Assembly: GCF_037042905.1 (NCBI RefSeq) | Contig: NC_087245.1 | Location: forward strand, 23,314,001-23,378,000 | Length of the DNA: 64,000 nt | Direction: 5' to 3' | Source of the DNA: Lytechinus pictus | Lineage: Eukaryota | Shown: positions 3,183 to 54,796 of the stretch, in pieces | Position numbering within the stretch: position 1 is the stretch's first letter | How the letters are laid out: every line of letters begins with the position of its first letter | Made by a program: the position numbers and the translations under genes | The notes under the pieces: model-generated | Database searches by the model: none | Told to the model about the DNA's origin: nothing | The model's input: the letters and a program-made list of their open reading frames with translations, nothing else

Positions 3183-3285
3183 TCACGGCGTCTGTAAGTT
3201 TCTTCTCTTTCTTCTCACTACCTTGCATCCACCCGTATCAATCTGACATCTGTTTGTACATCGCAGAGAGCCAATCGTGTCGTAT
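3183..3285 (-). CDS. ColQ-like terminal coding exon
   Basis: (K)[36 protein letters not shown] acceptor, TGA at 3183-3185. Confidence 0.9.
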
Positions 3286-6200: not shown

Positions 6201-9200
6201 GGTCATTTGAGAAAAGTTGATCATGAGCTAACCGTGAACTGGCTTATTGAAAGTCTACTTTAGTGTGGATTTTTGTTGTTGTTGCTAAGGTGAGTATCTG
6301 GTGTTAGGCCTACAACAATATTAAGGGAAATTCAGTTCCACTTCTTCACCCTATAGATTTATCATCAAAGTTAGGACTGGAAGCCCCAAAGGTTAGTCTT
6401 CAAAACCTATATGGGTAAAACCCCAGATGAGAAGTTACCTATAGATTTATCACCAAAGTTAGGACTGGAAGCCCCAAAGGTTAGTCTTAAAAACCTGTAT
6501 GGGTAAACCCCCAGATGAGAAGTTAATCTCTTGGGTTGAGCAGATTGGCAAATTCAGTGATGACCACAATTTATCATGATCTATCTTCTCAGGGTTTGAT
6601 TACAACATCAGGACTGTTCAATTATTGCTCAATAGCACCAACCTGTCCCGGGATCAAGATATCAGTGTCAGAGCCAGAGTCGCCCTTTTCACCCTTCTCT
6701 CCTCTGGGTCCTTGGGGCCCTGGCATCCCCTGACGGCCTGGAGGTCCACGCATTGTCTTTACTTCCTGCAGAAGATCGGAGGATGCCATCAGACAGTTCC
6801 AGTTGGTGTTATCCCGGAAGTAGAGCTTCCTGTCGTCCAGGCGGTAGGCGAGGGCCGCTTCTTCGCTGATGCTGTTCATTGCGTTCTCATCAGGCACAAT
6901 CAAGATGCGCTGAAATGGACAAAAGTGATGATCATCCTTAATGTCATTGACTTCATTACCATACTTTTCATTATATTCACTATTATCATCCTTATAATAT
7001 TGGTATTCACCATCATAACAATGGTCTCATCTCACTTAAGCCATATTACTATACCAGAATTAGCTGAACTTTCATTGTCATTACAATCTTGCAAATTAAG
7101 TCATCAAGCCAGTGTAATATTTTTTATTACTAATACCTCAGTCACATTGGCTCTACAGTGGCCATACAGAGTCGAAAACAGCCGTTTTATTCATTTTTGT
7201 TCAAACCACCTATATGTAGCTGATACAATGTGAAAACAGCTGTTTTCTACTCGCCGTACGGCCGCCGTAGAGCGAATGTGCCTGAGGTATAAGCAATAAA
7301 TTGAAATGGCAATAATTACCCCCTGAGTAACAAAATCTCCCTGGTCTCCTTTTGGACCGGGTGGTCCAGGGGGTCCAGTCAAGCCACGCTTTCCGACACT
7401 TCCTTGTATTCCTGGTGGGCCGCGGGGACCTACGGTACCAGGTTCGCCATTCTGACCTTAAATAGAAAGAAAAGCAATAGAATGTAACGAAAACATCAAG
7501 TTGTTTACAAACGTGTACAATGTATATTTTGAAAACATATAATCTCCATCATTAAAAATATCCATAGCTTTTTTAGTCCCAGAATAGATTGATGAGTTTG
7601 AGAGGTAGAAGTAGAAGAGTCAAAATTTCAAAAAATGCCAAAGGCACCATTTTATAAATTTCTTTGAAAGTGTTACACAGGGGAAACTGACCGGTGCTTC
7701 TCACTAATCAAAACCATGGATTTCACTGAACGACTAGTCAGAGCTGACAATTTAATCAGTGCTGACAACTTTCAGAAAACGCCACCTAGGTTCCAAAAGC
7801 AAAGTCACATAATAATGTTTTCTTTGGTCAAACTTTTACATTACTAACATCTAACATAAAATCTGTATTAGATTATTATGTCCATTATTGTTTGGTTGAT
7901 CATTTATAGAATACACAATGTATATTTTTCTTTGCTGTAAAGTCGATTACAGAAACCCTCATTATTAAAATTGACTCTCATTTCTCACCTATTCCTGGCG
8001 GACCCCGAGGTCCCTGTGGTCCCTGAATACCCATCATTCCCTTCGGTCCCTGTGGCCCTGGCTCACCATCGGATCCAGTACGTCCCTGGTGTAACCAAAC
8101 ATATAAAAGGAAACTTAATGGCAAGAGCATGTTTTAAATTACAGTGTACAAGGAGTTTAAAAGCTAGCTTTATTGTTGAAGTACTCACCAAAATTCATGA
8201 GATTATTACATTGATATTTCATGCACATGTAAGGAGCAGAAAATAAATCAAATAGCCCAGGTCTTGACTGGCTTGTTTGTTGGGTTCTTCAACTGTTAAG
8301 TGCATGTTTTTAACAATAACGATGACATTGGTCTGGAGGTAAGAGTGAAGTGTACACTTATAAATCATCTGCATAACAGTGATAGTTAAGAAATGACATC
8401 TTAAATTCCGTCAAGACCACCCAAGTGGTCATTGTGGTACACCAGAAACGAATTCAACATGATTTCTTTTCAAAATTAATATAGGCAGCTTTAGCCTTTC
8501 AGATGGATATTATTTTAACCACTCCATAACTGTAACATCAACACAAAGGGCTCTCAGATTGTTTAACATAATTGTATGATTGACAGTATCAAAATAAATG
8601 CTGAGGATAAATCGAAAACATTAATTCTCCCATCATCCATGTCTCTCAAGGTGTCATTTGATAGGTTAACAAGTAAAGGCTGAACACAATGACACAGGTG
8701 AAATGTTAGATAGGGAGAGGGGTAGTTGCTTACCCTTCTGCCTGGACTTCCTATTGCTCCTTTTGGTCCTCTTGGTCCTTGCATTCCGACCACACCTGGT
8801 AATCCTATTGGACCCTGTGGAAAATAGAGAAAAAATAGTTTATTACTGTTCTACTTCACTTATCTTCCATGTAGTACTATACTGAAACAAACAGAATGCT
8901 CATTTCCTCCTCCCTCTTCTACTCCTTCTCCTCCCTCCCTCCTCTTCTTCTTCTACCTTCTTTCATGTACTCATCCTTTCTTTTCTTTTTCTAATTTCCC
9001 ACACTCTTTCTGCTACTGTGTCAAAGATGGCATTTTGAGAATACTTTTTTGTTTCTCCCTCATATTCCAAATATACACTTAATTAAAACCAGTGTATCAA
9101 TTTTTGACCACATAGTAGTTAAAGGTCAAGTCCACCCCAGAAAATGTTGATTTGAATCGTTGGAAAAAATATGGATGTAACATAAGAAAGTTATATTTAT

Positions 9201-12200
9201 TTAAAAGTTTCGCTTATTTTTCACACAACAGTTAATTATATGCACAACTCGGTGATATGCAAATGATAAAGTACATGTAGGTGATGTCCCTCACTCACGA
9301 TTTCTTTTTTTTTATTGTTTGAATTAAAGCATATTTCAATTTTTACAGATTTGACAATTAGGACCAACCTGACTGCCATTTAAAAGCAATGGTAATTCCA
9401 CATTTTCAGGGAGGATTAAAACTTTTCTTACATGACAATGAGAAAATATGATTATTTCATATTTCATATACTGGTAATAAAATACTGGTAATAGTGAATG
9501 AGTGATGTCATCAGTCCCCTCATTTGCATACATAGCATTAGGTGGGGGATTCAAAACTTTAACACAGAATTTTGAAACTCATTCAATATGCTTATTTATG
9601 CGCAATTTTCAAAATTCACAAAAAATGCTTCTTTTTTTGTTGACCAATTTTGAATTTTTTGCTTCCATCTAGTAAAGCTTTGAGGTTCACCAAACTTCTA
9701 CATAGAATTTTGAAATTTTTACTAAAACAATTTTTATGCTAATTTATGCATAATATTTATAAAAAAATCACATAAAATTCTTCTTTTGTTGACCGATTTG
9801 GATTTTTTTTCTTTCATCTGGTAGAGCTTCATTAGGTTCACCAAACTTCTACACAGAATTTTGAAATTTGGATTAGAAAATTATTTATGCTAATTTATGC
9901 GAAATTCATAAATCACAGAAAATGCCTCTTCTTTATTTATTGACTGAATTTCAAAATGCTTCTTCGTCATTTCAAGTCTGATTTCGATTATGTTTGCTTT
10001 ATATGGTAGCATTAGGTGGGGGATTCAAAACTTCTACATGAAATTTTCAGTAGAAAATATTTGCTAATTTATGCAAAATTTATTCATAAATCACAGAAAA
10101 TGCCTCTTCTTCTTTATTTGTTGACCAATTTTGATTTTTTTTCTTCCATCTTGTAGAACTTCATGAGGTTCACCAAACTTCTACAAAGAGTTTTGAAATT
10201 TTCAGTAGAAATTTTTTAAATGCTAATTATGCAAAATTTATTCATAAATCACAGAAAATGCCTCTTATTTGTTGACCGATTTGGATTTTTTTCCATCTGG
10301 TAGAGCTGCATGAGGTTCACCAAACTTCTACACAGAATTTTGAAATTTGGATTAGAAAATTATTTATGCTAATTTATGCGAAATTCATAAATCACAGAAA
10401 ATGCCTCTTCTTTATTTATTGACTGAATTTCAAAATGCTTCTTCGTCATTTCAAGTCTGATTTCGATTATGTTTGCTTTATATGGTAGCATTAGGTGGGG
10501 ATTCAAAACTTCTACATGAAATTTTCAGTAGAAAATATTTGCTAATTTATGCAAAATTTATTCATAAATCACAGAAAATGCCTCTTCTTCTTTATTTGTT
10601 GACCAATTTTGATTTTTTTTTTCCATCTTGTAGAACTTCATGAGGTTCACCAAACTTCTACAAAGAGTTTTGAAATTTTCAGTAGAAATTTTTTAAATGC
10701 TAATTATGCAAAATTTATTCATAAATCACAGAAAATGCCTCTTATTTATGACCGATTTTGATTTTTTTTCCATCTGGTAGAGCTGCATGAGGTTCACCAA
10801 AGTTGTACACAAAAATTTGAAATTTTGTCTAGAAAATTATTTATGCTAATATATGCAAAATTTACAAATAAATCACAATAAAATGTTTTTCTCCTTTATT
10901 AGTTGATCAATTTCAATTTTGTTTGCTTTATATGATATCTAGGTGGTGATACAAAATTTCAACACAGAATTTTGAAGTTTGAAGTTGTTCATATATTTTC
11001 AATACTCACAAAAAATACTTATTTATTTGTTGATTGATTTTGATTATTTTTGTTCCATCTGAGAGCTGCATGAGGTTCACCAAGGTTCTACACAGAGTTT
11101 AGAAATTTTGACTCGAAAATTATTTATGCTTAATTTATATGAAATTTATTGAATAATTTTTTTTTCATAGATCACAAAAAATGCTTCTATGTCATTTCTT
11201 CATCAATTTCAATTCTATATCCTCAATTTATGTCACCAATATAATTCACTTACAGTGTCAACTGGGCTGAAATTAAAATTGTGTTAAATTTCGTTGTGAG
11301 ATGCCGGATGAGCTCCACATCATTGATGTGCTAGTTATACAATTTTCAGCGTTAGGCTTGTTGAAGTTTTCTCTTTTTATTCAAATCAACTCTTTTCTTG
11401 GTGTGGAATTTTCCTTCAATTATTCACCTTACACCTTGCCCCCAAATAGTAAAAAAATTACTTAAAAAGTCAGGATAAAGTGCATACTTGTTATACTACT
11501 TTTTAATGCTGCATGTACTCTACCTTATAATAATTAGTATATAATGAAGGACACTAGTACTAACCTCTGGTCCTTGTGGTCCCTGTGCACCGGGCATGCC
11601 GTCTGTCCCATCTAGTCCTCGTTCCCCTGGTTCACCCTATCATTTGATCAAAAAAAAAAATGAGTTACTTGAAACGAGTTCATTACCGCTGCCTTTATTG
11701 AAATTGAAGAAAAGCACTGACATTTAATTCAGTAAGTTCAGAGAAAAACACGACTTGCATGGAAGTCGACCAGCAACAATTGTTGATGGAAATGGACTAC
11801 CACTATCATATTTTCCTCTTTATAACTTCATTTTACAAATGAGCAATCTTAATGTTATACGTTACTGTTATAAGTTTCTTTTATCAAGTGAAAACGTAAA
11901 CAAATTATTTTGATGTATGTGAGATCGTGCATGGCTTCATTTTCCGAACAAGATTGAAACACCAAAATCGACAAAGCAGTTGCAAAGGTATTAAATACCA
12001 TGTAACTTCAATGTATGAAGAGACTGATTATTTGATTTACATTATCATCTCATTCTTCAATTTCATTGCACCTTCAAATTCATTGCACTTTTGGTTTTGG
12101 ATTTCGAAAATTTGATAGTGACCTCCAATAATCATGATTAATTTTATTGAATTTCCTGTTAAGAAGGTGAAGAGAGACATATATTCAAGTAAATCATGAC

Positions 12201-15200
12201 AAGGATTATAAACATTCAAATCAAACAATTAGGTAAAGATGCAATAATTAAATCTATTACCTTTGGTCCTATATCGCCTGTATCTCCTTTTCTCCCTCTC
12301 CTTCCGGGCGGGCCAGGTTCTCCCTGCATACCCTGGAATGAAAGAGTATAAAAGACGTGTCAACAGGAATGCAACAAAAACATCAAAATAGACGAGATTA
12401 CATAATAATACCTTAATTGTTTGTTTTATTTCCGAAATCATAAAAAACACAATATTTACACAATAGCTTACAAAACAATAATAATGATAATATGACACGG
12501 TTGGATAGCCCATTTCTGAGCTGTTGAGCATAACAGCTCTGTTCTTCCATGGGGACAATATATTGTGTATTTTTGAGTTTTGTCAGACGTGTATCAATCA
12601 GATATGATTATTTACGTCTGGGACCGACCTTTAACGTCACCATCCGAAAGACGTGACCAGGGCTCGAACCTCTGCATCAATTTGTAACTTCCCCGCATAG
12701 CTTGGATTACAGGCGCACGCCACAACGCCCAGTTAATAATTATACATAAACAATGGTAGCACAAAACATAAAATACAAAAAAAAAAACTCAATGTAAAAT
12801 GTGGTTACAAATATCCCATAGAGTTATTGTGAAAATCACCCCCCCCCTTAACCCACACATCTAACTGTTGATTACCTTGAAAAATAAGCAAAATGGAATT
12901 ATATGTTCCTAAATCGTAATTTTCATTTCATTTCCTTAAATGTATGGCCAAATCTATGACGGTATTGAATATTTAAGAAGAAAGATCACATTTTCCATCG
13001 CTTGCTTAGTTCGCTTGAAAGTTGTAAAAAAATAAGATATAATGAAAAATAAACAGTGTACCTCTTCGGAATTTCAGCCCTTTAAATTTTATGCCATTGA
13101 TTACCCACACTGCTAGTTGGGAGAATAGCACATTGCAAAGTTGACAGTATAACTAATATGATTTCTTTGTATGCTCAGGAAACGCAAGATCTAGTTATCC
13201 TTGCAATGTTATTAATTCTTTCCCATTAATCTTCCTATCCATTTCAATCTTAAGGCGACCGCACACCTTACGACTGGTCTGCGACCCGATTTTGGAACAA
13301 ATCGCATTTTGCTCATTTTCTGAAGATGTGAATGGAACATATCATTCTTTTTAAGGTTAAAATTAATTGAAATAATAATATTATAACAATTTTGAAGGAT
13401 TGCAAGTCCTTATTTTGGTGTAAAGTCCAAATTAGTTTCAAATCGTAGCCAATCGTACGACTGCTATGACGTCATTACGACTAGATATTAAATTCGCTTT
13501 TATTCTAAGAAGGATGATAGCATAGCCACGAATTTGATCATAGGTATTCGTACGATGATTTAGAACATTACACAGTAAGATTTTCCAAGTCTCAATATTA
13601 GCATCAAATTCTATTACATTTTATTCTGAAATCGGGTCGCAGACCAGTCGTAAGGTGTGCGGTGGCCTTTAGGCATCAGTGATTCGTTTGCCTTTAAGAC
13701 TCGAAACTAGCGTTTACGATGCTCAAAGTGACATTGTTACTACTATGATGTAAACATTTTCGATCATGAAAAAAAAATCGAGAACGGAGGGAGCAGTCAC
13801 AACTTGTAAAAAAATTCCGCAAAGAAAACTCATCGAAATCATGGAAATTCGGGTTTGTATATATTTTTTTAAGTGCAAGGCTCTTAAAACTGTTTATTAT
13901 CCATTCGTATGACTTCCTCAAATGATATTTTCAGTTGTCCGTTCATTCATTCGATACAATTAGCCTTGGCAGAGATTGACAAGATCATAAACACTTGTCA
14001 ACTTGCTTATGCCAAAGTCGTTTCATCTGTGGCGCAATTTGCCGTTTTTAAAAGAAATTTAAAATCACACAACCCTGCAAAAAGACGAAAATACTAGACT
14101 ATCATGGGTATAAGAAAGAGGTTCTCCGTAATTTGTAACAGCTTGTATATTATCAGGATATTGCCTCAGTTTCGGCAGGCAACAAAAGAGATGAGTGCCA
14201 CCAAGGAGTTATAAGAAATGGAGAACCATTCAACACATTCCCTTTAAAAGTAACTTTGATGTCACAAGGATGAACTATGTTAGACATGTTTGGATTTTTC
14301 TCGCAGATTGTAGACAAAAGATTCCTACCTAAGTACAGACTCGCTGGCTAAATACAATAGGAAATGTGCTTTTGAAATGATTATCGATTTTCGCTGCCTC
14401 GATCTGTTTGGATATGACGAGCAGACACGTTGCTAACTTTTACGGGGGAAAGCAAAATAAATGTTGCAATATCTATTGAAATATGATTTGATGTTACTCT
14501 ACCGGCCGCATGTGATCGCAACTATGGCACATAACATTACAAATATATTCCCTCAAACTAATCTTTATTAGGTGATCTGTCAATCGACAGATCAACTATT
14601 AATTTCGTACGAATTTTCTTTTTTATTTATATCTTTTTATTTTCCCGCCCTTTTCTTGTTGCCATAAAATCTCAAAATCTACATCATCAATTATCTTCAA
14701 AATATCATCAGATATGGGGACTTATCCTGTCATCTGTATGAAACAAGTTCAAGGTCAAAAGGTCATCGTGACGTCATCTAGACGCCATTTTGCAAATTCC
14801 CATTATCAATCATATCTTCATTATCAATTATCAAAAATTAACCATATATACATCACATTAACTTCAAGTCAAGGGTCAACTGTCCATGTCATCAAAGGTC
14901 ATGTAAAGGTCACGACGTGCGCGTACGCGCGCGTCAAAATTTTAAAATGCTCAAAATCACTTTTTGACCAAAGTAGAGTATGAATCAGGTCATTTTAAGC
15001 ATTTCAAAAATTTGCGCGCGCACACGGTTACGCGCGCGTTCTCGCGCGTAACGGCACTATGCAACATAGGATCGCCATTTTTTTCATATCAATGCACCGA
15101 CAATATAATTCTGAACAATTTGATACCTTGATCAACCTTCTACGACAAGTAATAACGGAATTAGCCTCCATCAAAGTTTACAGCACGTGCGCGCGCGCGC

Positions 15201-18200
15201 ACTAACCATAGACAATATATGTGCAAAAACATGCCTATACAAAATTCATTATAGCTCTTCAGGAAGTCCGTTGACCCCCAATTTCTTTTTCATATTCGAA
15301 TAGAATATGGATGGGAGATATGATTTCATGTCACATTTGACCCAAAATTTTATCATGACGTCATCAAAATGGCGTCGGAACACAAAATTCCCATTTTGCT
15401 ACTTATGACGTCATCATAATTATGCACATTTGACTCTTAACTCCATAAATATTGGCCAATTTTTGCTCAGTTTTCAATATGTTGTAGCTGAGGACATACT
15501 CTTTCTAATTTGATGGCTTTATTTACATTTAAAGGAACGAATCATCCTGAAAAATTGCAAGTTATAGAGACATGTCATTTTCGCTCATTTTGTGTGCAAT
15601 CTCTATGGGAAATGACTTTTTCTCAAAACTGGATTTTACATTCCTCTATTTCGTGAGCCATATCTCCATTTCTTTTTGTCGGTTTTCTCTGAGCTTGGAG
15701 TATGTTGTAGCTGAGATTGTAAGCTATCGCCAACGTTGTCTCCATTTTCCGATCAGATGCCGGGATCATGCCCGTATTTCACTTGCAAAATTGGATTTGA
15801 GATCCTCTTAATTTGCTTATGTGTAAAGTCTATGGGAAATAGTGCTTATGTGTAAAGTCTATGGGAAATAGTGTAGCTCAGTTGATAAGGCATCAGACTT
15901 GCGTGCTTAGGGTCCAGGGTTCGAGCCCAGGGGTGAACATGAGATTTTTTTTTTTTTTAACATATCACAAATGGTTCTTTATGACCATTACAATGTATAT
16001 AAAATAAAACATTGGACAATAAAAGATATCAAAATCCCTTTTAATGTACAATGTTCCTGTACAATATGTGTATGACCTACACTTTATCACACAACTTTTT
16101 CATTTCCCTCTTTTTCAAGAGTATTCAACACGTTCTTTTCATAAGAGAAGTTCAGTTTTCATCCTGATGATCATATTGATCTCAATAAACATGCTGATTG
16201 TCTTCCTCATCATGAAATCAGAGACAGATCACCTAATTCGTCCTCATGACGAATTAAAATTCTAGTTTTTATTCATTTTTGTCATGTAGAAGTGTTTGGA
16301 TATTGCTAACATTGACTTAAGAATCGTCAAATTCTAATACATTTATAAAAGTATTACCATATCGGGTTACCATACCATAATTTTGCCCAGTTTCAGGCCA
16401 TAGTAATGCTTTGAGATATATTTCGTCATGTGTTTAAAATTTAAATTTTGTAATCAAATAAAACTAGAAATATTCCCAATTATCTTCCTTTTTTACACAA
16501 AGCGATTTTTACTTTTCCCCATGAAACTGGCGGCATCAAAGGTAAACACCAAACAATGCACCTGTGTATTATTTTGTTTTCCTTTAAAAATTTGAAGCTA
16601 TGTACATGAATTAATTTGCATTTCGTGGTCACTCCATCTCTAAAAACTCCTTCGATTCATAATCAAATCCAGTCATTTAATTTGGATTCTGTACTGTATA
16701 TTCGAAAGTCAGTCAAGTGAGCCAACATCCCTCACTTTAAAATTTTTACCCCACTCTTTCTCTGCATGTCTGTATGTCTACCTGTCTGTTTTTGGATGAG
16801 GGATGGTGCCCCCAGCCTCTCTATTCTCCCTTTCTCCATCTTCCTCCCTTTTCTTTCTCTTCGTCTGTCCTTCTCCCAGATTTGTCCGGTCCCTCCACTG
16901 CTTAAGTTCATCGGCATTAGTCTCCATGTATTTATCTCTTATCGTTTCATTCATTGTGCTTTGTAAATGCAATCATGGTGCTTAACGAACGCCTCTTAAA
17001 CAACAGTTAAGAAAAGAGGAACATAGACTTATCCAAAACACCATCAGAATTGAAGCAATCACTGAAATATTTTTTACATACCACGCATGACATGGTACAC
17101 ACGCCATCATCCGTGGTAGTCGGCATGGTAGTCGTCGTCGTATCTGGATCTGTCGGTGGAGGTGGCGGTGGTGGTGATGGTGGGGCTGGAGGCATCATGG
17201 TTGTTGGAATGAACTGTTTTATAAAATCAGAAGACAGGTTTATTGATTAATCACCCACGATAAATCGCACTTTAATCGAATAGAAGTCATATTAAAGTAG
17301 TGATAAAAACAAGTGGTTTCATTTTAGTTTTCACATAATGATACAACTGCAAAAATAGTGGTGTGTTGAGAATGGGGGAGGGGGCAAAAGTAATAATTGG
17401 ATCACGAAATGATGGTGATGATAATAATAACAATAATAGTAAAAATGATAAACTATTTAATAATAATAATGATAATAACAATAATAATAATAAAAATTAT
17501 AATAATATCAACAATAATAATAATAATTATAATAATAATAATAATCAATGATAATAATAATAATAATAATAGAATCACCCTGGAGAGAGAGGGAGGCAGA
17601 AAGATGGACAGTTGTCAGAGACAACGAAATTGTTACTTATTGTTATACTTGTACTTGTACTAATCAAAGCATTATATTACTTACTGTGTCGTTATGAAAA
17701 TCAAAACCAAGGACTCCGGAAGGGGGAGGAGGTGGTATAATTGGTGGTGGTGGTAATCTCATTATCAAGATGCTAGAGCCAGAAGAAGATACAGTGGTCA
17801 TTCCTTCTCCTTCCCCTGGTGTCGGTGGAGGAGTTGGATTTGCTTTGTGCCTTGAGTTTGGTCCTGAGCATGGGTGAATATGAGTTCTCATTATATCAAC
17901 GTGTGAATGATTTTGTCAGACCCACTGCCACTTTCTACTTCGACAGTCAGCATCAGTGAAGACTGCGACACAGAGTCTTTATTTAGTGTGTCGTCAGTTC
18001 GCTGAAAATTTCCTTTAATCATTTTTATCACGGTCTCTTGATCGCATTCGGGTAAAAATGAATAGTTATAATAATTGAAAATACTGAAGTCCTGTCATGC
18101 TAATTTAATATAGTAGGGAGAGAATAGTCCGATGACCTTCAGCCAAGATTTCAAAATGTAGAGTGTTTTGGAGAACAAACGAATCCAGCAAGAGTGACAT

Positions 18201-20586
18201 ACAAAAAGTAGGGCGCTAACTGTGTGTGGACATGGTAGAATGTGATTTCAGAAAGCGGGCAAATTAATTGGAAAATTAAATATTTCGAGTAGGCCTATAC
18301 ATAATTATTTTCCATGACACCGTAGAGCCGCTTTTAGTGATGAAATGTACCCGGAGTCTCTGTAGTTTTGGAAGCAAGTTCTGGAAAATGGAAAAACAGA
18401 TTTGAGTTGAGTGAGAGACTTACCTGGACATCTTGGGCAGCATTTTCCTGGGCTGATAATGGGATTCTCACATGTCACCGGTTTACATGCACTCCTAGCC
18501 TTTAAAGAACATTCAGATTCTCCATCCTGTAAGAAAAGTATTCAATTTAAGTATTGCCAACAGAGCCTACTGGAATGCAGAACATGAATTTAAAAGATGG
18601 TCATTATCCGTACGGTAACAATCAGAGAAGATAATGCCTCGTGATGTGGAAGGGGCTTGACTTCAGCGCTTTCCACCGCTTTACATTCTCTCTTATTGTT
18701 TAAAGAACATTAAGATTCACCACCCTGTAAGAAAATATCCAACGTAGGAAAGTATTTCAAGCAGATCTGTTCTTGGGCCTGCTTGAATGCAGATCATGAA
18801 TGTTTACAGAAGAAGGTCGTTATCTGTACGGGAAAGATCAAAGAAGCTATGCGTCGTCATGTAAAATGGGTTTGACTTGCGCGCTTTTACAACTAGGGGA
18901 GATCTTTTCGGATCCAAAAGGGTGACACATTTTCGCAAGCAAAGTTTGACAATAGCCAAAAAAAGTCCTCATTTGTGTATGAGCGCCATATTTACAATAT
19001 TTCCCGTGACTCTCCAGGGGGGGGGGGGCTCACTTGTGTATAAAGGACATATTTACATTAAAAATATTTACTACGACTCTCAAGGGTGGGGGGGGGGGGC
19101 ACGGGCCAGAAATGCCCCCCTCTGGATCCGCCTGGGTCTAAATTACATTTCATTTTTTTTTTAAAGTCTAATCTCTTTTTTGTTTTCTCTTGTAAAAATA
19201 CAACCCATCGGTTGGAAGTGGGTGTGATACTACGTTAAGAAAAAAACCAACATTCGCACCAAGATGACACCATTGAATGAACATGAATTTTACCAAGATC
19301 GGAGGAGGAGGAGTTCTACTTTGGTGATTTTCAACAATTAAAGTTGTAATACTGCATACTTAAAGCATAATTCACAAGTTTTGTGATTTTAAAAGTATAA
19401 CAAAGCTTTGAAATTAGAATTCATCACAAAATGAATTTCTTGACGATTTCACCACTTTCCAGGCATCTTTTTATCAAAAAGAACAACTTCGTCGTGTTCG
19501 TTAGAACCATGAACATACCTTACATCTACATCTGATACAAGGATCGACCTGTGATTTGTATCTAGCTCCCTCTTGATAATCTTTCCCTTCGAAGTGGCAC
19601 TGAGCTGTTTGAAATGATTTAAATAAAACACATGTAATCGTGACATGGCGAACATGAAAGCTTTCAGATAAAAACCATATAGCGATAACATGATTATTCA
19701 TCTTTCAAGTATCCAAAAGACTTGGGCATACGTCTACGGTGAAATTGGGGCTAGGATTTCATCGCTGACCCGGGTAGACCTTACAGGTGAGGCAGACATG
19801 GTAGAGGGGAGGGCTAAAGCCCCTCCCCCAAATACTCGCTTAAATTAATTACTAAGTAAAATTACCTATAACTTTGGATATAAAGACATAAAATAATAAT
19901 TACAAAGTTATTCAACAAAGGCATACAATCTGAGCTAGAGCTGTTTTCACCGACCATTTTGGAATACAAGAAAAAAATTTACCCTCATTAGTGCAAAATA
20001 ACGCTAGAAATCTAAGACATCTACTGTAAGTCCCTTTTGTACAGATGTAGGATCGGGGAAAGGTGGTTAAAGCTCGAACTACCGAATCTCACTTAGATTA
20101 CAATTTTGTAAAATCATTGTTTGGGTAGAAATATACCTATCGTTTTGGAAATATACCTATCGTTATAGTCTTATAGATGTATTTTTTTAATATTCAGGCT
20201 GGTAGAACAAAATTAGTCTTTTATACATATCATTATGTTAAAAGTGACCCTCTTTCTCTCTTATTTTTGCCTCGCTTGGTCTATTTTCTCGAAATCATTT
20301 AATCACAAAACTGGCCGGGCCCGTTTCATAAAGAGTAACAACTGTTGTATCTTTGCCATTATGGCAGCTACCATGGCAACAGGGCTTAGCAGCCAATCAA
20401 AATAAAGGTTACCATGGTAGTTGCCATAATGGCAAAGTTACAACAGTTGCAACTCTTTATGAAACGGGTCCCTGGTATAGATATCTTACCTGGCGATGAA
20501 GTATTTTCTATTTGAGATCGGCTGATCGATATACAGAACACAGCTATAGATAAGACTTGAAGCAGAATTCTCGCCCTTCCTTCCAT
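3183..20586 (-). CDS. COLQ: ColQ-like (acetylcholinesterase collagenic tail-like) secreted collagen with N-terminal vWC domain; 14 coding exons, 536 aa
   Basis: Manual model complement(join(3183..3285,4208..4310,4794..4875,6643..6909,7320..7456,7989..8085,8734..8814,11565..11636,12261..12332,17082..17213,17685..17863,18424..18526,19519..19604,20490..20586)). All introns are GT-AG, phases are compatible, and the 1611 nt are open. C-terminal [34 protein letters not shown] and [79 protein letters not shown] match vertebrate ColQ as I recall it ([111 protein letters not shown]). The symbol denotes homology; orthology is unverified. Confidence 0.85.
3412..3833. mobile_element. piggyBac-like MITE
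   Basis: TTAA TSD; termini CCCTAAATAGACTGGG / CCCGGTCTTCTTAGGG. Confidence 0.7.
3939..4054. mobile_element. Short hAT-like MITE
   Basis: TIRs CAGGCGTGGATCCA / TGGATCCGCGCCTG; degenerate 8-bp TSD AAACCAAT/AACCCAGT. Confidence 0.55.
4208..4310 (-). CDS. ColQ-like coding exon 13: Cys-rich domain (103 nt)
   Basis: (D)[42 protein letters not shown] boundaries, phase 1 to 2. Confidence 0.92.
4794..4875 (-). CDS. ColQ-like coding exon 12: Cys-rich domain, CGNG...E.CDDGN repeat
   Basis: [35 protein letters not shown] boundaries, phase 0 to 1. Confidence 0.92.
5137..5991. mobile_element. hAT-type non-autonomous element
   Basis: Perfect 8-bp TSD ATCACTGG (5129-5136, 5992-5999); TIRs CAGAGGCGTCGATCC / GGATCGACGCCCCTG; internal repeats of AAATTTCAGCTCGCGCT. 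Confidence 0.88.
6349..6524. repeat. 88-bp tandem duplication (2 copies)
   Basis: CCTATAGATTTATCAYCAAAGTTAGGACTGGAAGCCCCAAAGG...CAGATGAGAAGTT occurs twice, nearly identical. Confidence 0.9.
6643..6909 (-). CDS. ColQ-like coding exon 11: ColQ-type non-collagenous (trimerization-like) region plus short second collagen run
   Basis: [95 protein letters not shown] acceptor, GTTGGT donor. Confidence 0.88.
7134..7289. mobile_element. MITE (family shared with 55123..55443 and a fragment near 61390-61445)
   Basis: TIRs TACCTCAGTCACATT / AATGTGCCTGAGGTA; internal GAAAACAGCCGTTTT inverted motif. Confidence 0.75.
7320..7456 (-). CDS. ColQ-like coding exon 10: end of main collagen domain
   Basis: (G)[48 protein letters not shown] acceptor, GTAATT donor, phase 1 to 0. 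Confidence 0.88.
7989..8085 (-). CDS. ColQ-like coding exon 9: collagen (97 nt)
   Basis: [40 protein letters not shown] boundaries, phase 0 to 1. Confidence 0.9.
8734..8814 (-). CDS. ColQ-like coding exon 8: collagen (81 nt)
   Basis: [35 protein letters not shown] boundaries. Confidence 0.92.
9123..11418. mobile_element. Kolobok-like MITE interrupted by a nested tandem-repeat-rich insertion
   Basis: Left TTAA|AGGTCAAGTCCACCCCAGAAAA and degenerate right end TTTTCTTGGTGTGGAATTTTCCTT; unrelated repeat about 9530-11335 inside. Confidence 0.55.
9530..11335 (+). repeat. Array of diverged ~120-130-bp units including a near-perfect 479-bp duplication
   Basis: GAGGTTCACCAAACTTCTACACAGAATTTTGAAA...AAATCACAGAAAATGCCTCTT recurs many times; the block near 9841 is repeated near 10320. 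Confidence 0.85.
11565..11636 (-). CDS. ColQ-like coding exon 7: collagen (72 nt)
   Basis: [32 protein letters not shown] boundaries. Confidence 0.92.
12261..12332 (-). CDS. ColQ-like coding exon 6: collagen Gly-X-Y (72 nt)
   Basis: [32 protein letters not shown] boundaries, phase 0 to 0. Confidence 0.92.
12560..12733 (-). mobile_element. Putative SINE with 7SL-RNA(Alu-domain)-like head
   Basis: Minus strand reads ACTGGGCGTTGTGGCGTGCGCCTGTAATCCAAGCTA (cf. 7SL/Alu 5' end GCCGGGCGCGGTGGCGCGTGCCTGTAGTCCCAGCTA), then box-B-like GGTTCGAGCCC, then CGTCTTTCGGATGGTGACGTTAAAGG and an A-rich end. Confidence 0.65.
13253..13668. mobile_element. PIF/Harbinger-like MITE
   Basis: About 40-bp TIRs AGGCGACCGCACACCTTACGACTGGTCTGCGACCCGATTT; TTA TSD on both sides. 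Confidence 0.85.
14565..15960 (+). repeat. Probable interspersed repeat (HINE/DINE-like) ending in a tRNA-like segment
   Basis: Hairpin TGATCTGTC-AATC-GACAGATCA (14573-14594) followed by a T-rich tract, CpG-rich GCGCGCGC motifs, a 29-bp tandem duplication (about 15813-15871) and a tRNA-like box A/B plus poly-T. Boundaries are approximate. Confidence 0.4.
15870..15958 (+). pseudogene. tRNA-derived sequence (pseudo-tRNA or SINE head)
   Basis: TAGCTCAGTTGATAAG (box A) and GGTTCGAGCCC (box B) followed by a T-run. Anticodon and acceptor stems do not pair. Confidence 0.55.
17082..17213 (-). CDS. ColQ-like coding exon 5: polyproline/Thr-rich stalk and CxxxC
   Basis: [47 protein letters not shown] acceptor, GTATGT donor, phase 0 to 0. 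Confidence 0.75.
17420..17572. repeat. (AAT)n imperfect microsatellite
   Basis: Direct inspection. Confidence 0.95.
17685..17863 (-). CDS. ColQ-like coding exon 4: proline-rich, PRAD-like motif
   Basis: (G)[65 protein letters not shown] donor, phase 0. The CTCAG acceptor at 17864-17866 was chosen for phase-1 compatibility and is weaker. Confidence 0.65.
18424..18526 (-). CDS. ColQ-like coding exon 3: vWC domain, second half
   Basis: [34 protein letters not shown] with a CCxxC motif; TTTTCTTACAG acceptor, GTAAGT donor, phase 0 to 1. Confidence 0.88.
19519..19604 (-). CDS. ColQ-like coding exon 2: vWC domain, first half
   Basis: (A)[28 protein letters not shown] with a CxxCxC motif; CAG acceptor, GTATG donor, phase 1 to 0. 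Confidence 0.85.
20317..20471. mobile_element. Palindromic ~155-bp Harbinger-like MITE
   Basis: GGGCCCGTTTCATAAAGAG...CTCTTTATGAAACGGGTCC long TIRs; same family as 49246..49401 in opposite orientation. Confidence 0.85.
20490..20586 (-). CDS. ColQ-like coding exon 1: signal peptide
   Basis: [32 protein letters not shown] has a basic n-region and hydrophobic core. Phase-1 GTAAG donor. A CAG acceptor at 20606-20608 after a pyrimidine tract implies an upstream UTR exon. Confidence 0.8.
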
Positions 20587-23287
20587 CGCCCAGACATTGA
20601 TAAACCTGCGTGTGTATATAAATACAGAAGAAGAGAAAGAACGGATAGAGTGAGAGAGTATGAAAAAGAAAGCAGAAAAAATGACAAGATAGAGGGAGAG
20701 AGAGAAAAAGAGAGAAGGGGAGAGAATGATAACAATAGAGTGGGATGTAGAGAGAAACAAGGGAAGGCAGAGATGGGGGAAAGAGAGAGAAAGGGGGGGG
20801 GGGTAGCATTAGCACTGATTCAAACTCAGAGAGATTCAACATGAGCAATGGGATTAGGGTGTCTATTAGTCTACACACTTAAGTTCATTTCTTTTCGAAT
20901 ATTCCGCAACTTGATTTCTGATAATATAAACATTGAAAATAAGGAACATTCTGTAGATGAGACTCACAATTTCCTTGTCCTACTCCTTTCAATTTTCTAT
21001 CCTTCTTTCTATCGATTCGCTCTATTTCTCTTGTTTTCTCCTTCTCTTGCTCTCTGCCTTGCTATGCTTTCCCCTCTTCCCGTTCCCTGTCTTCTCGCTT
21101 GCCCATCCAGCAAAGAGAGCAAAGACCATTCTCATGTAGTTAGTGAAGAGACAGGACAAGAGCTGAGGAGGATATAGAATAACGGAAGGAGGCTATTCAT
21201 GATCGGGGCTGGTGGCTCTTCAATGACTGCAACAGCCCTGATCAAACTTGTGAGAAAATATATTGAGCTATCACAAAGGCGTCACGCGTCTGAAACGCTT
21301 TCGAGAAGTTCCTTCGACGTCTCGCCAGTCTCCTTGGTCTCTAGCGATAGACGTCGCAGGATGATGAAGATGAAACATGTGAATTCACACGAACTGTCTT
21401 GGACTTACAGTCCCTGTGCGCAAGAAGGAGCTCCATATTCAAGGTTAATCTAAAGAAAGCTTCGTCAATTGTTTGCTTTTATGAGCGATGCCATTCCAGC
21501 ATGCTTGTATCTTCCGCGTCTCCCAGGGTTCCGTCTAAACACGAAAGAAAGCTCCCGATTGCGACATATATTCACTCTCGAAAAAATTACAGGCTGCAAC
21601 TGGTGGAAACGTCGACGGGAAACCATGGAGAATTGTTGGGGTCCATCCGAAAAGTCTGTGGGTCATAATCTGTCTTCAATCTCGAACAACCGCACATAGT
21701 CTCCTGGAGACGTCTCGCGGAGATGTCTCGAAGTTATCGTAGAAACAGCTTCACGAAAAGCGGTAATCCTTGTCGTGGTCACAAACTAGTTTTCAGATCA
21801 TGGTACCCCTCCCCCCCCCCTCTCTCTATCTTCTTGTTGGTTTGATATGTCTGTGATTGATTTGTTTAGATCTTGGATGATATTGCAAGACGGAAGTGTT
21901 CCTGTTTATCAGAGATTGGCCTAGCACAAACAGAGACGACTCAAGACGCATGTGATTGGGTTGTCAGGTTGTTGCGAAAAGGGGGCAAATGCGCCTATCA
22001 AAAAAGATGTATTTTGTTTCAAAAGTATAACAAATAATTATTGCTGCATGCTGCTTTATAATACGTTCCTAATTCATTGGTCAGTACAATTTGCCAGAAT
22101 GTCGACACGAACGAAATCATTAAAACAGTAATTAAATGTAGTGGTTATTTTACATATTCGATTTCAAACTGCTGCACTTATTTAGATTACTCTCTGTGTT
22201 CATTGCGTCGTAATCTTTTACACAGCTACATGCGGAGGCAGGTGTGGTATAACTTCACAATTGCAGGGGTGATTGGCAAGGGAGAATACATCATACTTTT
22301 GTGACATCAAATGAAACATAACTGATACATGAATAACATGAACGGCATACCGAGGAACTGCACCCCTGTCTGCAGGAACGCTGCATACGACTGTATGAGA
22401 TGAAAAATAATAATACTGCCAATAGAAGACTATAAATCTATAAGCCATTGTAGAATATTTTACTTTCTCTCTTATATTGTGTAGTATTTCATCGGAATAA
22501 AAAGTTGATGCTGTTATCAACTTCAGAATTGTTCAGCGTTATAGCTTCATTACCCATCGTTGTTCCGAGGTTTCCGCACTTCTTTTTTGTCTCGATAAAA
22601 CAGTGTGATGAATACATTTACCAAATCAATGGAAGGTGTGTACCATATAATTAGAACCAAAAAATACAGACATACTGAAACAAGCTAAGAAAGTGTTTCG
22701 GATGAGGGATGGAGTAAACTTCCTCTTTTCACCATCGGACGATAGGGAGGGGTGAGGAATAACTTCCACACACCCTTTGCCAACGGATGATTTAGGGTGA
22801 GTACATGAACCTTTCCCCCATCCCCTTCACCCGTGGCTACGCCCTGTCGATGCTAGCGATAGATTTCAAGTATCCTCCACGTGGGCTTGAGGCCAATTAG
22901 CTGAGGAGTGTGGAGAGAAATATCGACCGGTGTAAATTGAATCAAGAAATCAATATCCAAAGGATGCAGTCTCTCTCAAAACCCAGCAGTCGTGCAAGCA
23001 CGGCAGCAATATCTCTCCTACCATCTCCAATTATTCCTGACTGTGGGATTTCTTGCACGCGACTCCGCCACCTACCATTATCATCCCCATCTCCTAATTC
23101 CAACCCTCTTTTCAGTTTGATCAATTGATCCTTTGATATTTGTTAAGAATTAGAATTATCATATACCATTATCCTAACCCTTTTCGGCGTTTAATTTCAT
23201 TATATCATTCTCTGTTTCTGCATTCGTATAGGTCTGTCTCTCTTTCTGTCACTGTCTCCTTGCCCTCATCCCCCTTTCGTCCTCCTG

Positions 23288-23440
23288 TTCTTTCTTCTTC
23301 TTCTTCTTCTTTCTCTTCTCATTCTTCTTTCTCTTCTTCTTTTCCTCCTCCTCCTTCTTCTTCTTCCTCCTCCTCCTCCTCTTCTTTTTTTCTCCTCCTC
23401 TTCTTCTTCTTCTTCTCTTCTTCTTCTTCTTCTCCTTCAT
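23288..23440. repeat. (CTT/CCT)n polypyrimidine microsatellite
   Basis: Direct inspection. Confidence 0.95.
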
Positions 23441-44149: not shown

Positions 44150-46600
44150 ATTCTAAAGAAACACGCTGTAAATGAATATGATGTCGACTAGAGTATTGAA
44201 ATTATTCCTTTCATGACCATTGAATTGTTTTTAGAGGGAATAGAATAGACATTTCCCGTCAAATATTTTTTAAAGACAAGCGAAAATACTTTCTATCAGT
44301 AACTTTTAAACAGTATCTCAAAGGAAAATAAACAGTCACTTTTAGGTGACTTTAATATGAATGTTCTTCGCTACAAAATAAATTCTTCTGTTAATGATTT
44401 TGTTGATACTCTGGCTACTTTTTCCTTTTATCCACAAAGAGTAAAACTAACAATTACTCTTACAACAACGACCGCATTAGACAACATTATATACAATATC
44501 CCAGAAAAGGATACTAGTATTAAGTCAGGTATACTCATTGTAAATATCAGTGACCACCTATCTCCATTCATCATTTTACCTCGAAATAATATATTCTAAT
44601 AATAGCATCAGTTGTTAACAAGGACATGAAAGCCGAAAGTATACTGATGCAAATTTATATCTATTCTGTAACAAACTACAAGCTACTAACTGGTAATTTT
44701 TAGAAAACGTAAAAGATGCAAACAAGCAATTTGAACTGTTTGGCATATGTAATCAAAACTTCATGATAGTTTCCCTATAAAAAAAAAAAAAAACAATACT
44801 GCAAAAGAGATAAACCTTTGCTCACGAAATCATTGAAGAAAGTGTGCAAAAAGAAGAATTCATTGTTTAAAAATATGTAATAAATACTACCGTATCTAAT
44901 AATATGAATTATGAATAAAGAGATGAATGAAATAAGATATGCATAGCGTAAATACTTCGATGACAAATTTCAGCATTTGAAAATAATCATAAAGCCACTT
45001 GAAAATTCATCAATGAAATACTAAATAGAAAAGCCAAAAGTCAGAATATTAAGAACATAAACTGCGATGGAAATTGTACCAGTAATGCTCCTACAATTGC
45101 TGAATCCTTTAATACAATTTTCACTTCTGTTAGCAGTACCGTACACAATAAAATTGCGGAAAATGCCGATTGTATGCATGAGCACATGTAATACTTTAAA
45201 GTTAACTATGTAAACTGAATGTTTTTCACTGATATTACAGGAAATGATATTTTTGAAGACTGTATTGAAATTACAGTTAAAAGTCTTGGATATGACGGCT
45301 TTAATACTAAACTAATTAAGTCATCTATCCATTTTATTATTCGCCCCTGTATGTTATTATAAAAAAAATCCTTAGAATCGGGTGTCTTCCCGATAGCCTT
45401 AAAACTGCAAGGGTTACTCTTGTTTAAAAAAAAGTGGCGACACAGATATCTTGAATAATAATCGCCCTATTTCGGTATTGAGTGTATTTAGTAAATATTT
45501 GAGAAAAAAATTGCTTGTGAAAAATTAATGTCATTTTAAAGAAATGTTGATATTTCATCTCCGAAGTAATATGGATTTAGACAAGCTAGGATAGGAAACA
45601 AATTTAGTATTCGTTGAGCTTGTTGACAAATAAGCAAAATCTTTTGAACAGAATAAAACAACTTTTGGGATATTGTTTGACGTTTCGAAGGCCTTCAATT
45701 GCATGGACAATCGAATTCTACTTAATGAATTATATTCTCATGATTCTTATGACATTAGAGGATTAGGTCTTAACTGGTTTAAACGTTATTTATCAAACCG
45801 AAAACATTATGTTGCAAATGGAAATAGTAAGCCTTCACCAAAGACTATTATTACCGGAATTCCTCAAGGTTCAATACTAGGGTCAGTGTTATTTCTAATA
45901 TATATCAACGACCTTCGAAATGTTAGTACAGATACATCAGTGATATAGTTTGCTGATGACACTAGTTTCTTCCTGTCAGGCAAAAACATTCAATTAATAA
46001 AAAATAACTTACAGAATGAGTTGAAAATTTAAGAATAATGTTTTTTAATGTAATAATTACAAATCAATGCTTAAAAAAGACTTCTTACGTTATATTCCAC
46101 AGAAAAGGCAAATCCATCAACTGTGATTATGCAATTAATGATAAATAACGAGATAAACAAGAAAATGCTGTGAAATTTCTTGGCATATTGATAGACTCAC
46201 AATTAACTTGGAAAGATCATGTCAGCTGTATTTCAGAGAAAAATAAATATCAAGATTTACTGGAGCATTATACAGAGTAAGCTTAGGGATCTCCTTCCAT
46301 TGAGGATCCTTGTTAATTTATATTATTCGATGATTTTCTCGCATCTTACTTATGGTATAACTGTATGGGGACAAGGTCATAGATAACTTTTCCAAAGATT
46401 TTTCTAACTTCAAAAACAGTCTATCCGCATTATAACAAACTCAAATTATTATGCTCACTCCGAACCATTATCTAAAAATAACCCTCCCAATTATCCCTTT
46501 GAATGACCTATAAGTTCCACATTGTATTCTATTATACATAATGTACTCCCTCTCTCATTGAATGAGTATTTCCTCTACAATTATAACATGAATTTATATA
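44150..46600 (+). mobile_element. Decayed non-LTR retrotransposon (CR1-group LINE) ORF2: APE endonuclease plus reverse transcriptase
   Basis: Fragmented motifs in order: GDFNM (about 44345), SDHL (about 44550), RPISVL (about 45462), YGFR, DVSKAFN, GIPQGSILG, FADDT (about 45949), KFLGI, YGITVWG, LQKQSIRIIT. Many stops and frameshifts. Confidence 0.9.
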
Positions 46601-50423: not shown

Positions 50424-53400
50424 CTTGGGTAAAAACACACGTTTATCAGTTCATATCTAATGAAGATAAGCAAAGTGTTTTTTTTTTCTTTAATCCATGA
50501 TAGCAGCTTTATATGCAGAACGTGGCAAAAGCTTAACTAGTTGAACACGAGAGACAATGGTGCGTGTTCTTTCCATTATCATGAAAAATGTGACAATTTT
50601 CTTTTATATAAGTTATCTAAAAATTACATTTTGGGGTAGAAATCCCCCTGTGTCACATTAATCTCTCAAGAACGTATAAATATTTTTGTTAGGAGAACAG
50701 ACAATGCTATTGAGAATTGACGTTATAAAATATCATTCAAAAATATGTTTTACCTGAATGAACTTCTTGCTCTTCTGCAGGTTCAAGGAAGACGTCCTCT
50801 TCATTAGGAGGAATTACGTCAGGTTTTGCTCCAAGACGAGTATCTTTGTTGTTGTTATTCTTCTGCCGAAGGGACTTGGATCTCTGGCTCCTCTGAACGC
50901 TGTCACGAGACCGTCTTCGAAGTGCATTTCTTCTTTTGAATTTTCCAACCGATGTTGAGCTTGGTGAAGCAAAGCTACAGGTGGAGTCGGATGAGATGCT
51001 TTTCATGACAGGCTCCTTTTCATCTCCTGTTTCGGTACAAACCTTGTGGTAGGGAACAATGTCCGCATCATAGTTTAACATGGATGATGTCCTCCTTTCA
51101 ATCCTACATTCACACTGGCCACATTTAGAGGGCGCCTGTACGTCATCCGAGGATAGATGAGGCAGGTTGAGTGTGTATGTACCGTGCTTGATGCGTGTAC
51201 GGGGTCGTGAAGGGCCTTCAGGTGTCTTTGGAAAAAGGCAAGTAATAGGAGCAGATGATCCCTTTCTCGGTCGCTGTGAACTCTTCATTGTTGGTACTGT
51301 TCTTGGGGTTGTGGAAGCCTGGTTGGTTATATGAAAAAAGAAAGGGATGATGACTGTTGTTTTTATAATATAAAAATCGCTTCATCGTTTCATACAGACC
51401 TACATTTTGTTAATTTCATTTTAAAATTTATATAATTATATATTTTTGTATGTTCTTGTACATAATTATTGTCATTACAGTCAATCACTTTTGAGAATAT
51501 TTTGATATAAACAACTTGGCTGAGTCATTATTTGTCCAAGGAATACTAAATAATCACGAAGAGAAATTGAATTGTATTCAGAATGCAAGTTTAAGACCTG
51601 ATGATGTCGTTTTTTACTCATTTTTTTTTCAAACAAACAACAAGGGTATTAATTAAGTGGCCAAAAATTATATTTTTATACTCCTTTTTTCCTCTTTTTT
51701 TTAATTCCCCACGTGTGTCCTTTTATAAATACTTGAAATAATAGAGGCGCTCACCCCAAGGAAGGAAAATATTAAAGGGTAGCAAAAGAATACAAAATCT
51801 CAGAAACTCATCCGGAAATTGTTTCTATATGTGACGAAATTACATTAAACATTTTTTATAGTGGATTTGTACAGTGTCATCGTTTTGAATTCAGCACTGA
51901 TTATGCAACATATCACCGTATAAAGGTAGTCCTACCATCTACGTGAAAATTAGAAAGGGGTTAGAGAATTTACCATGTGATTCTCGGTGGAGGCTGGTGT
52001 CTGAGTCGACTTCACTTCAAGGTGTGTAGATGGCGGTCCACTCTTTCGCCTTGATGTCTTCGCCTTCACCAACCCGCCACAGGACCTTTTATTCTCCCGA
52101 TGGAGTCCCGGCACAGTCTGGATATCATTTCCTGTCATCTCTGAATGGGGGCGCTTTGAGGTTGTACTTTCACCCGAGACAAGCCGAGAGAGAAACTTCG
52201 AATCTTTCACTCGCTCGGGCAGGGATTGGCGCCGTTTTTTCGATGGAATGTCACATGGCATCTCAGGTTGATAACATGGATAAGGTGACTCCAAGGCAAT
52301 TGCAGGAATGCACGACCTTCTTTTTCTTGACATTGTAGATGGTGTGGCATCTGAAATTTTCTTGTGGGACTTTGTCCGGGAAATGGATTCTCCCTTCCTG
52401 TAACGACCGTAAAGTTGTCGATTATCAGCACCGTATCCAGAAGCACCCTCACAAAGGGAGCGTTCGCGAGAGGCAGTCACTGTGGACGTTTTCCCGGATA
52501 GTTTTCTTTGACTCATCGCCCTTTCAGGTCGATGTCGAGATCGGACGGGCGGATCGACGCGGTGGACTGGTTCACTTGCAGAATAATGATGGACAATTCT
52601 TGGTTTAGCTTTCTTTGTGACCCTACAAGTGTCAATGACCACTGGGGAATCAGTCCTTGGTTTCAGCTGTCTGCTTTGTACTATCGGTTTGTCAGACAAC
52701 CGATCAGCTTGGTGGAACCTTCGAACACGTTTGGAAGCATTTTGTGATCTTGGAGGTATTGCGTAAGGGGAATTCGAATACACTTCCTGAAGGTTCTCTC
52801 GATCTTCCTATATTAAACCAGACAGAGAACGGATGATATAGACACTGCTTTCTTGTGTTAAATTTGTTTTATACTTAGTGGAAAATATAAACCAAGGGAA
52901 ACAGTCTTTATTTAGAACTATACCAACCTCGAAATAATGATTTATATGTATGTGCCACCATACAAGGAAACGAACCTTGAACCGACCGAGTCAGTATCGA
53001 TAAGCTCAAATATATATTTAAAAAAAGTGAATTCAATATGAATTTTAGGGGGAATCTTGTTATATCAACCTACGCCCAAAATTCCAAAATCGAATATGAG
53101 CATTACCAGTTTTAGCCTTTTGTTTGAAAAGCCACTCAAGCCATAATACACACATGAATGTTTAATGATCCAATGATCATGTTCAACTTACAGACTTTCT
53201 AGATTTTGCATGACCACGAGTTCCTGTACTTGGAGATGTTGAGGGTGAATTCGGTATGAGTTTTCGTTGGTCGGTGAAAGCCTTGACATATGGCCGTATA
53301 TTATGAGAAGTAAGGATTGCATGTGCAGATGGTCGCATGTTGGGACTCACAGAAAGAAGAACTGCCACAAGCTCCTCGATAACGATTCCATAGGTCCTTC

Positions 53401-54763: not shown

Positions 54764-54796
<33 letters not shown>

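Follow-up and report, generated by a model that had tools for sequence, protein, structure and literature searches.

Asymmetric, collagen-tailed AChE has been described from vertebrate neuromuscular junctions and electric organs, and the vertebrate PRAD follows the pattern CC-xxx-PPPPP-xx-PPP-FF. The core of the human PRAD is given as LLTPPPPPLFPPPFF, with the layout PPPPP-LF-PPPFF (bioRxiv 10.1101/431288). Three accounts describe a crystal structure in which the WAT helices are bound to the PRAD non-covalently, and an AChE assembly in which two subunits are bonded to two cysteines beside the ColQ PRAD (bioRxiv 10.1101/431288; PMC8518539; PMC2212707). The BChE tetramer is described as holding a lamellipodin polyproline peptide non-covalently (bioRxiv 10.1101/431288; PMC6152381), and polyproline alone is reported to assemble tetramers, synthetic polyproline substituting for the PRAD (PMC6152381; PMC1285061).

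Here we characterize a proline motif of the sea urchin Lytechinus pictus, found in a 64 kb window (the whole stretch of DNA analysed) and described in an earlier note as PRAD-like. Its host protein shares with vertebrate ColQ the domain order PRAD, collagen, proximal C-terminal domain and distal Cys-rich C-terminal domain (PMC10671321, for the C-terminal domains of human ColQ). Its two proline runs are likewise parted by a hydrophobic spacer of two residues, its collagen carries candidate basic clusters, and its top Atlas match, at 0.95, is ColQ. Set against the human PRAD core, the urchin motif has the same 5+2+5 layout, but it lacks an adjacent CC, has proline runs of 4+5 rather than 5+3, and ends in Ser rather than FF. 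The urchin protein also differs from vertebrate ColQ in adding an N-terminal vWC and a second Pro/Thr stalk, and echinoderm proteins carry a short collagen insert between the proximal and distal C-terminal domains.

Two other systems invite comparison. Like the lamellipodin-derived peptide of the plasma BChE tetramer, the urchin motif would be a Cys-free, non-covalent polyproline core for four WAT helices; that peptide, however, has long proline runs without interruption and derives from a cytosolic protein, whereas the urchin motif has a fixed length and belongs to a collagen that is secreted. PRiMA similarly has an N-terminal PRAD that organizes AChE and BChE tetramers, but it is a transmembrane anchor with four upstream cysteines (PMC8518539), whereas the urchin collagen has no cysteine close to its motif.

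Gene structure and expression

Splice-site scoring and tblastn place the host gene on the minus strand, with 14 coding exons. The frame is intact and 536 aa long, its ATG lying at 20586 and its stop at 3183, and every intron is GT-AG. Set against L. variegatus XP_041473506.1, the predicted protein has 9 differences in 536 residues (98% identity). From the N-terminus it is made up of a signal-like helix, a vWC domain (residues 35-94), a region rich in Pro and Thr, the collagen (200-350), a conserved block (351-393), a short insert of collagen and a tail rich in Cys. The features, in window positions, are as follows.

20490..20605, minus strand: ATG exon and signal-peptide-like hydrophobic helix (helix 3-23 in the AF2 model), spliced in the contig of sequencing run X6 only
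19519..19604, minus strand: first half of the vWC domain (Pfam), covered in X6, with depth nil in raw runs X21 and X22
18424..18526, minus strand: second half of the vWC domain, with CC (C90-C91) and C94 (Pfam, Foldseek)
17685..17863, minus strand: exon with divergent linker, PRAD-like motif and conserved N-glycosylation sequon (NDT at the exon end), from splice sites and RNA junction reads
17718..17756, minus strand: PRAD-like core of 13 residues, with proline runs 17753-17742 and 17735-17721
17082..17213, minus strand: second Pro/Thr-rich tract (mucin-like stalk, seven-Pro run) and CxxxC right before the collagen; between-class identity 0.55
7320..12332, minus strand: five Gly-X-Y collagen exons (12332-12261, 11636-11565, 8814-8734, 8085-7989, 7456-7320), Pfam PF01391
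6643..6909, minus strand: proximal C-terminal domain of trimerization type (predicted homotrimer, weak fold match), then a short second collagen stretch
4875-4794, 4310-4208 and 3285-3183, minus strand: distal Cys-rich C-terminal domain of ColQ type, and stop (DUF4215 match; between-class identity 0.65)

The earlier note had placed a PRAD-like motif in 17685..17863 without naming a strand. This interval proves to be a spliced exon of the minus strand (17863-17685, 179 nt, bounded by AG/GT, phase 1 to 0), and the plus strand at 17685-17863 has stops and no sensible translation. The proline runs lie exactly where the earlier note put them, at 17721-17753, the first Pro codon starting at 17753 and the last ending at 17721. 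The motif has the form L-PPPP-xx-PPPPP-S, with a hydrophobic spacer. When all six frames of the 64 kb window were scanned for neighbouring pairs of proline runs, only two matches were returned, both in the ColQ-like gene (the motif and the next-exon tract, 17213-17082); this and its conservation make the motif more than a chance feature. The next-exon tract and the CxxxC ahead of the collagen do not figure in the earlier note. The gene model bears out the proposed ColQ-typical place between the N-terminus and the collagen.

The assignment of the gene to ColQ, implied by the earlier note, is supported by ESM Atlas matches and by the RefSeq names of its relatives, on which the vertebrate link of the window protein is built. 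With the whole protein as query, chordate ColQ makes up the top three Atlas clusters, which score 0.95, have 180-184 features in common with the query and carry the same pair of Pfam domains; the motif region by itself (residues 96-200) found no ColQ look-alike, its best matches being other collagens at 0.77. Relatives in S. purpuratus, Acanthaster, Patiria, Asterias and Branchiostoma are named 'acetylcholinesterase collagenic tail peptide(-like)', names given automatically by similarity, and the Lytechinus model is called 'collagen alpha-1(III) chain-like'. The collagen domain (residues 200-350) matches PF01391 with an E of 1.9e-28, and the distal C-terminus matches DUF4215, its Cys pattern being invariant in 17 orthologues. 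The collagen of the window protein holds two GRRGR basic clusters; the pattern G[RK][RK]G[RK], which we take to be a candidate basic heparin-binding cluster pattern of ColQ collagen, occurs in 11 of the 12 proteins scanned, twice in urchins. PDB sequence searches returned just collagens and vWC domains, or no significant match, and the full-length AF2 models are poor (mean pLDDT 36 and 52) and uninformative on the motif.

Two smaller features of the C-terminal half were noted. The short collagen stretch between the proximal and distal C-terminal domains (6643-6740, minus strand) is present in echinoderms and absent from Glandiceps and amphioxus, and a basic C-terminal VVRRKRR (3198-3218, minus strand), three of whose arginines are invariant in 8 echinoderm proteins, is a possible furin or heparin site.

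Transcript evidence comes from the 4 of 23 sequencing runs aligned over 16900-20700, about 6% of each raw run having been read. The motif exon is joined to the downstream exon by 18 and 24 junction reads (X21 and X22, respectively) and in the X1 and X6 contigs, and to the upstream exon by 11 and 24 reads in the same two raw runs and in the X6 contig. No joint that skips the motif exon was seen in the aligned runs X1, X6, X21 and X22. Neither failure foreseen by the earlier note, an exon missing from transcripts or proline runs that are not conserved, was encountered: the exon is spliced in RNA with both junctions read, and the motif is strongly conserved between classes. Artefactual or intronic proline codons are therefore ruled out, and the motif region is real, conserved and probably functional.

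Elsewhere in the window, an intronic 477-bp tandem repeat occupies 9628-10869 in 2.6 copies; an (AAT)n microsatellite lies at 17421-17571 and a (TTC)n one at 23292-23438. Upstream of the ColQ-like gene are the exons of a protein kinase gene (50740-60368, minus strand; Pkinase E 7.5e-14), apparently NEK-like. Broken ORFs lie at 44303-45948 (plus strand), which we take to resemble a LINE endonuclease and reverse transcriptase.

Conservation of the proline motif

Searched with a profile built on the proximal C-terminal block, 1.84 billion representatives yielded 38 matches, and further searching added more; leaving out isoform duplicates, short exon fragments and unrelated matches, the orthologue set comprises 19 full-length proteins. 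When the Cys-rich C-terminus served as query, bacterial DUF4215 repeat proteins swamped the results, and no ColQ of a vertebrate, tunicate or holothurian came up, which does not imply absence. In a midpoint-rooted tree of the non-collagen C-terminal parts, made of invertebrate rows only (no vertebrate) and with several weakly supported forks, ambulacrarians are followed by amphioxus and then by two outgroup families, broadly in the order of the species tree. These two ColQ-like families, which fall outside the deuterostome rows of that tree, have a short collagen and Cys-poor proline motifs; ColQ-like genes may extend beyond deuterostomes.

Across three echinoderm classes, no other stretch of 13 residues in the protein is as well conserved as the motif. 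Among 8 proteins from urchins, starfish and a brittle star, its between-class identity is 0.95, with 12 of 13 positions invariant, compared with 0.08 in the linker of 36 aa that precedes it and 0.25 in the flank that follows; the second proline tract reaches 0.55, the vWC 0.41 and the distal C-terminus 0.65. When 17 proteins are aligned, six motif prolines form the sole invariant columns ahead of the collagen. The pattern [LF]PPPPxxPPPPP occurs in 15 of 19 orthologues: all ten ambulacrarians (urchins, starfish, brittle star, crinoid, hemichordate), two of three amphioxus rows, the third having one Pro-to-Leu change, and three of six rows of the two ColQ-like outgroup families. One orthologue has an LF spacer identical to that of the human PRAD. 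The motif of the hemichordate Glandiceps is RLPPPPMIPPPPPS, followed by an NHT sequon, and an N-x-S/T sequon follows the motif in 9/10 ambulacrarians. The crinoid Antedon has two tandem copies, at residues about 79-91 and 122-134. In the remaining three of these six rows (family B, 3 of the 19 orthologues), the motif has diverged, a single Cys lies just upstream and the second proline tract is present.

A separate observation concerns the predicted Glandiceps isoform X4, in which a hydrophobic C-terminal tail replaces most of the distal Cys-rich domain; this form could be membrane-anchored.

As the earlier note had held for the urchin, the adjacent CC is absent, and it lies beside the motif in 0 of 19 orthologues; the motif is thus not a covalent, vertebrate-type PRAD. 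Since the adjacent CC is lacking in every invertebrate orthologue examined (19/19), its lack is not peculiar to the L. pictus genome, and we take the Cys-less motif to be the general invertebrate state. The nearest CC, which had been put about 45 aa upstream in the vWC domain and thought to be used within it, is C90-C91 (exon 18526-18424), 41 residues ahead of the first Pro. In the 8 echinoderm proteins, the distance from CC to motif is 35-44 residues, spanning the least conserved linker. The vWC is a full-length match to PF00093, above the cut-off (residues 35-94, profile 1-57/57, E 5.6e-7), with ten cysteines, CCxxC included, that are invariant in the 8 proteins, and its fold matches the vWC of collagen IIA and CCN3 (Foldseek, E 3e-3 to 4e-3). 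Such a complete ten-Cys domain supports intradomain use of the CC, the pairing itself being taken from the family, and, together with the distance of 35-44 residues, rules out the vWC CC as the CC of a PRAD. An N-terminal vWC is found in 10/10 ambulacrarians and in 0/9 other orthologues.

Predicted trimerization of the C-terminus

Three copies of residues 332-400 give a predicted homotrimer score of 0.74, against 0.08 for the best control, with contact agreement between runs of at least 88% and partner pLDDT of at least 71; in calibration on eukaryotes, 17 of 29 solved same-chain pairs attained this mark, as did 0 of 30 single chains. The proximal domain weakly matches the collagen XV/XVIII trimerization folds 3N3F and 3HON (rmsd 2.0-2.1 Å, E 0.17-0.45), and since it resembles this solved trimerization domain, the trimer score may reflect memorization by the predictor. 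Block 351-393 is conserved between classes at an identity of 0.64. By prediction, the proximal C-terminal block is a putative ColQ-type trimerization domain.

A putative non-covalent PRAD

With two proline runs and a short hydrophobic spacer N-terminal to the collagen, the motif has the layout of a PRAD. Our preferred reading, to which we assign a probability of roughly 0.65, is that it is a putative non-covalent PRAD wrapped by four cholinesterase WAT helices. By analogy with vertebrate ColQ and BChE, the motif would adopt a polyproline II helix in the secretory pathway, and four C-terminal WAT helices of a T-type cholinesterase would wrap it antiparallel via Trp-Pro stacking. Three chains would trimerize from the proximal C-terminal domain and then zip into the collagen helix; such a trimer carries three motifs, so that as many as three esterase tetramers could sit on a single molecule, in an A12-like form. 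Lacking a CC, the complex would have disulfides only between its esterase subunits, as the BChE-lamellipodin tetramer does, and the basic collagen clusters and Cys-rich C-terminus would retain the complex in the matrix. By parsimony on these sequences, in a sampling of ambulacrarians, amphioxus and the two outgroup families, the Cys-less state is probably ancestral for deuterostomes, the CC clamp having been added on the line to vertebrates.

Several points count against this reading. The terminal FF of the vertebrate PRAD is absent from the urchin motif, and to our knowledge cholinesterase has been reported from invertebrate deuterostome tissues in globular forms only. Ciona AChE-T is, for its part, said to assemble on rat ColQ. 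In addition, H-type C-termini, which carry a GPI anchor, are said to be widespread among the AChEs of invertebrates (PMC3045457). The lack of a ColQ look-alike for the motif region in the Atlas, the diverged motif of family B and the runs that lack the signal-peptide exon (see below) also weigh on this side. Polyproline being a generic ligand, conservation of the motif does not name its partner.

Alternative explanations

One alternative is that the motif is homologous to the PRAD and binds another secreted partner, such as a non-AChE member of the esterase family, a coiled coil or a matrix protein, so that cholinesterase anchoring would be a vertebrate specialization of an older ColQ. The widespread H-type C-termini would fit, as would the extra vWC module of the ambulacrarian protein and the marking of annelid gut secretory cells by a gene that a single-cell study labels colq (bioRxiv 10.1101/2020.10.16.342709). 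However, the layout and position of the motif match the PRAD, and AChE and BChE were stated in 2017 to be the sole known proteins that tetramerize on a polyproline peptide (PMC6152381), and we consider another partner unlikely.

Alternatively, the motif might serve a structural role free of any enzyme, as a rigid polyproline II spacer or as a self-association or chain-registration element ahead of the triple helix. Both proline tracts and the Thr-rich stalk do share one region, which is unstructured in the AF2 models (pLDDT under 50). A spacer would nonetheless tolerate changes of length and spacing, as the second tract and the flanks of the motif have done, whereas the motif keeps both across classes; moreover, trimerization is already accounted for by the predicted trimer of the C-terminal domain. 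We therefore regard a structural role as distinctly improbable.

The 5' end of the gene raises a further possibility, that of a cytosolic polyproline ligand (for SH3, WW, EVH1 or profilin) in a signal-less isoform starting at the ATG at 17801. X6 alone joins the signal-peptide exon and both vWC exons to the motif exon, and X21, X22 and X1 are without the signal-peptide and first vWC exons: in X21 and X22, exon 19604-19519 has no depth and neither of the two upstream joints has a read; the X1 contig begins at 18400, inside intron 4. These samples may use an alternative 5' end, perhaps making a product that lacks the signal peptide. No signal-like stretch accompanies the ATGs that come next in frame, 17801 and 17762. 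A pattern-based search of the sequence found no upstream or alternative first exon, and the true 5' partner of exon 4 in X21, X22 and X1 may sit beyond the aligned stretch. Against a cytosolic product, collagen requires the ER, the sequon following the motif is kept in nine of the ten ambulacrarians, and named full-length orthologues mostly start with a hydrophobic, signal-like stretch, although the Antedon and B. belcheri models do not; such a ligand is thus very improbable. In the same region, the intronic sequence at 20320-20475 is palindromic, is covered to very high depth by reads of both strands and shows many variants; it looks like a high-copy MITE.

Equally improbable is a PRAD still covalently linked, via the CxxxC about 50 residues downstream (C194 and C198, between motif and collagen in urchins) or via the vWC cysteines, given that the CxxxC cysteines are absent in both Asterias species and reduced to a single Cys in Acanthaster and Patiria, that the ten vWC cysteines are an even and full set, and that WAT, being antiparallel, has its C-terminal Cys on the upstream side of the PRAD (bioRxiv 10.1101/431288; PMC8518539).

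Implications

Part of this picture is already known, as automatic annotation has given ColQ-like labels to several species and vertebrate biochemistry has established that a PRAD can bind non-covalently; the non-covalent PRAD put forward earlier is accordingly less surprising than was implied, and it is not a new binding principle. What is new is that a Cys-less motif is so extremely conserved between urchins, hemichordates and amphioxus, together with the probable later origin of the CC clamp, the ambulacrarian vWC fusion and the crinoid double motif. Our literature search, which lay largely outside subscription journals and so allows for a prior description, found no account of an echinoderm ColQ protein or its PRAD. 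A 2023 review of the echinoderm ECM does not mention ColQ in its text, and its supplement gave no match to the three motifs and one name searched.

That a putative PRAD without cysteines should be the best-conserved element of an invertebrate ColQ suggests that WAT-polyproline anchoring predates vertebrates and that the disulfide clamp came later. Taken further, and here we are tentative and rather doubtful, the collagen-tailed cholinesterase itself might be older than vertebrates: echinoderms and hemichordates would build non-covalent A-type forms on a ColQ with an ancestral Cys-less PRAD, fused to a chordin-type vWC that would join acetylcholine clearance to the binding of growth factors (e.g., BMP), and the crinoid form, with its tandem PRADs, could carry twice as many tetramers. 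For echinoderm matrix biology, the ColQ-like protein would be an added candidate.
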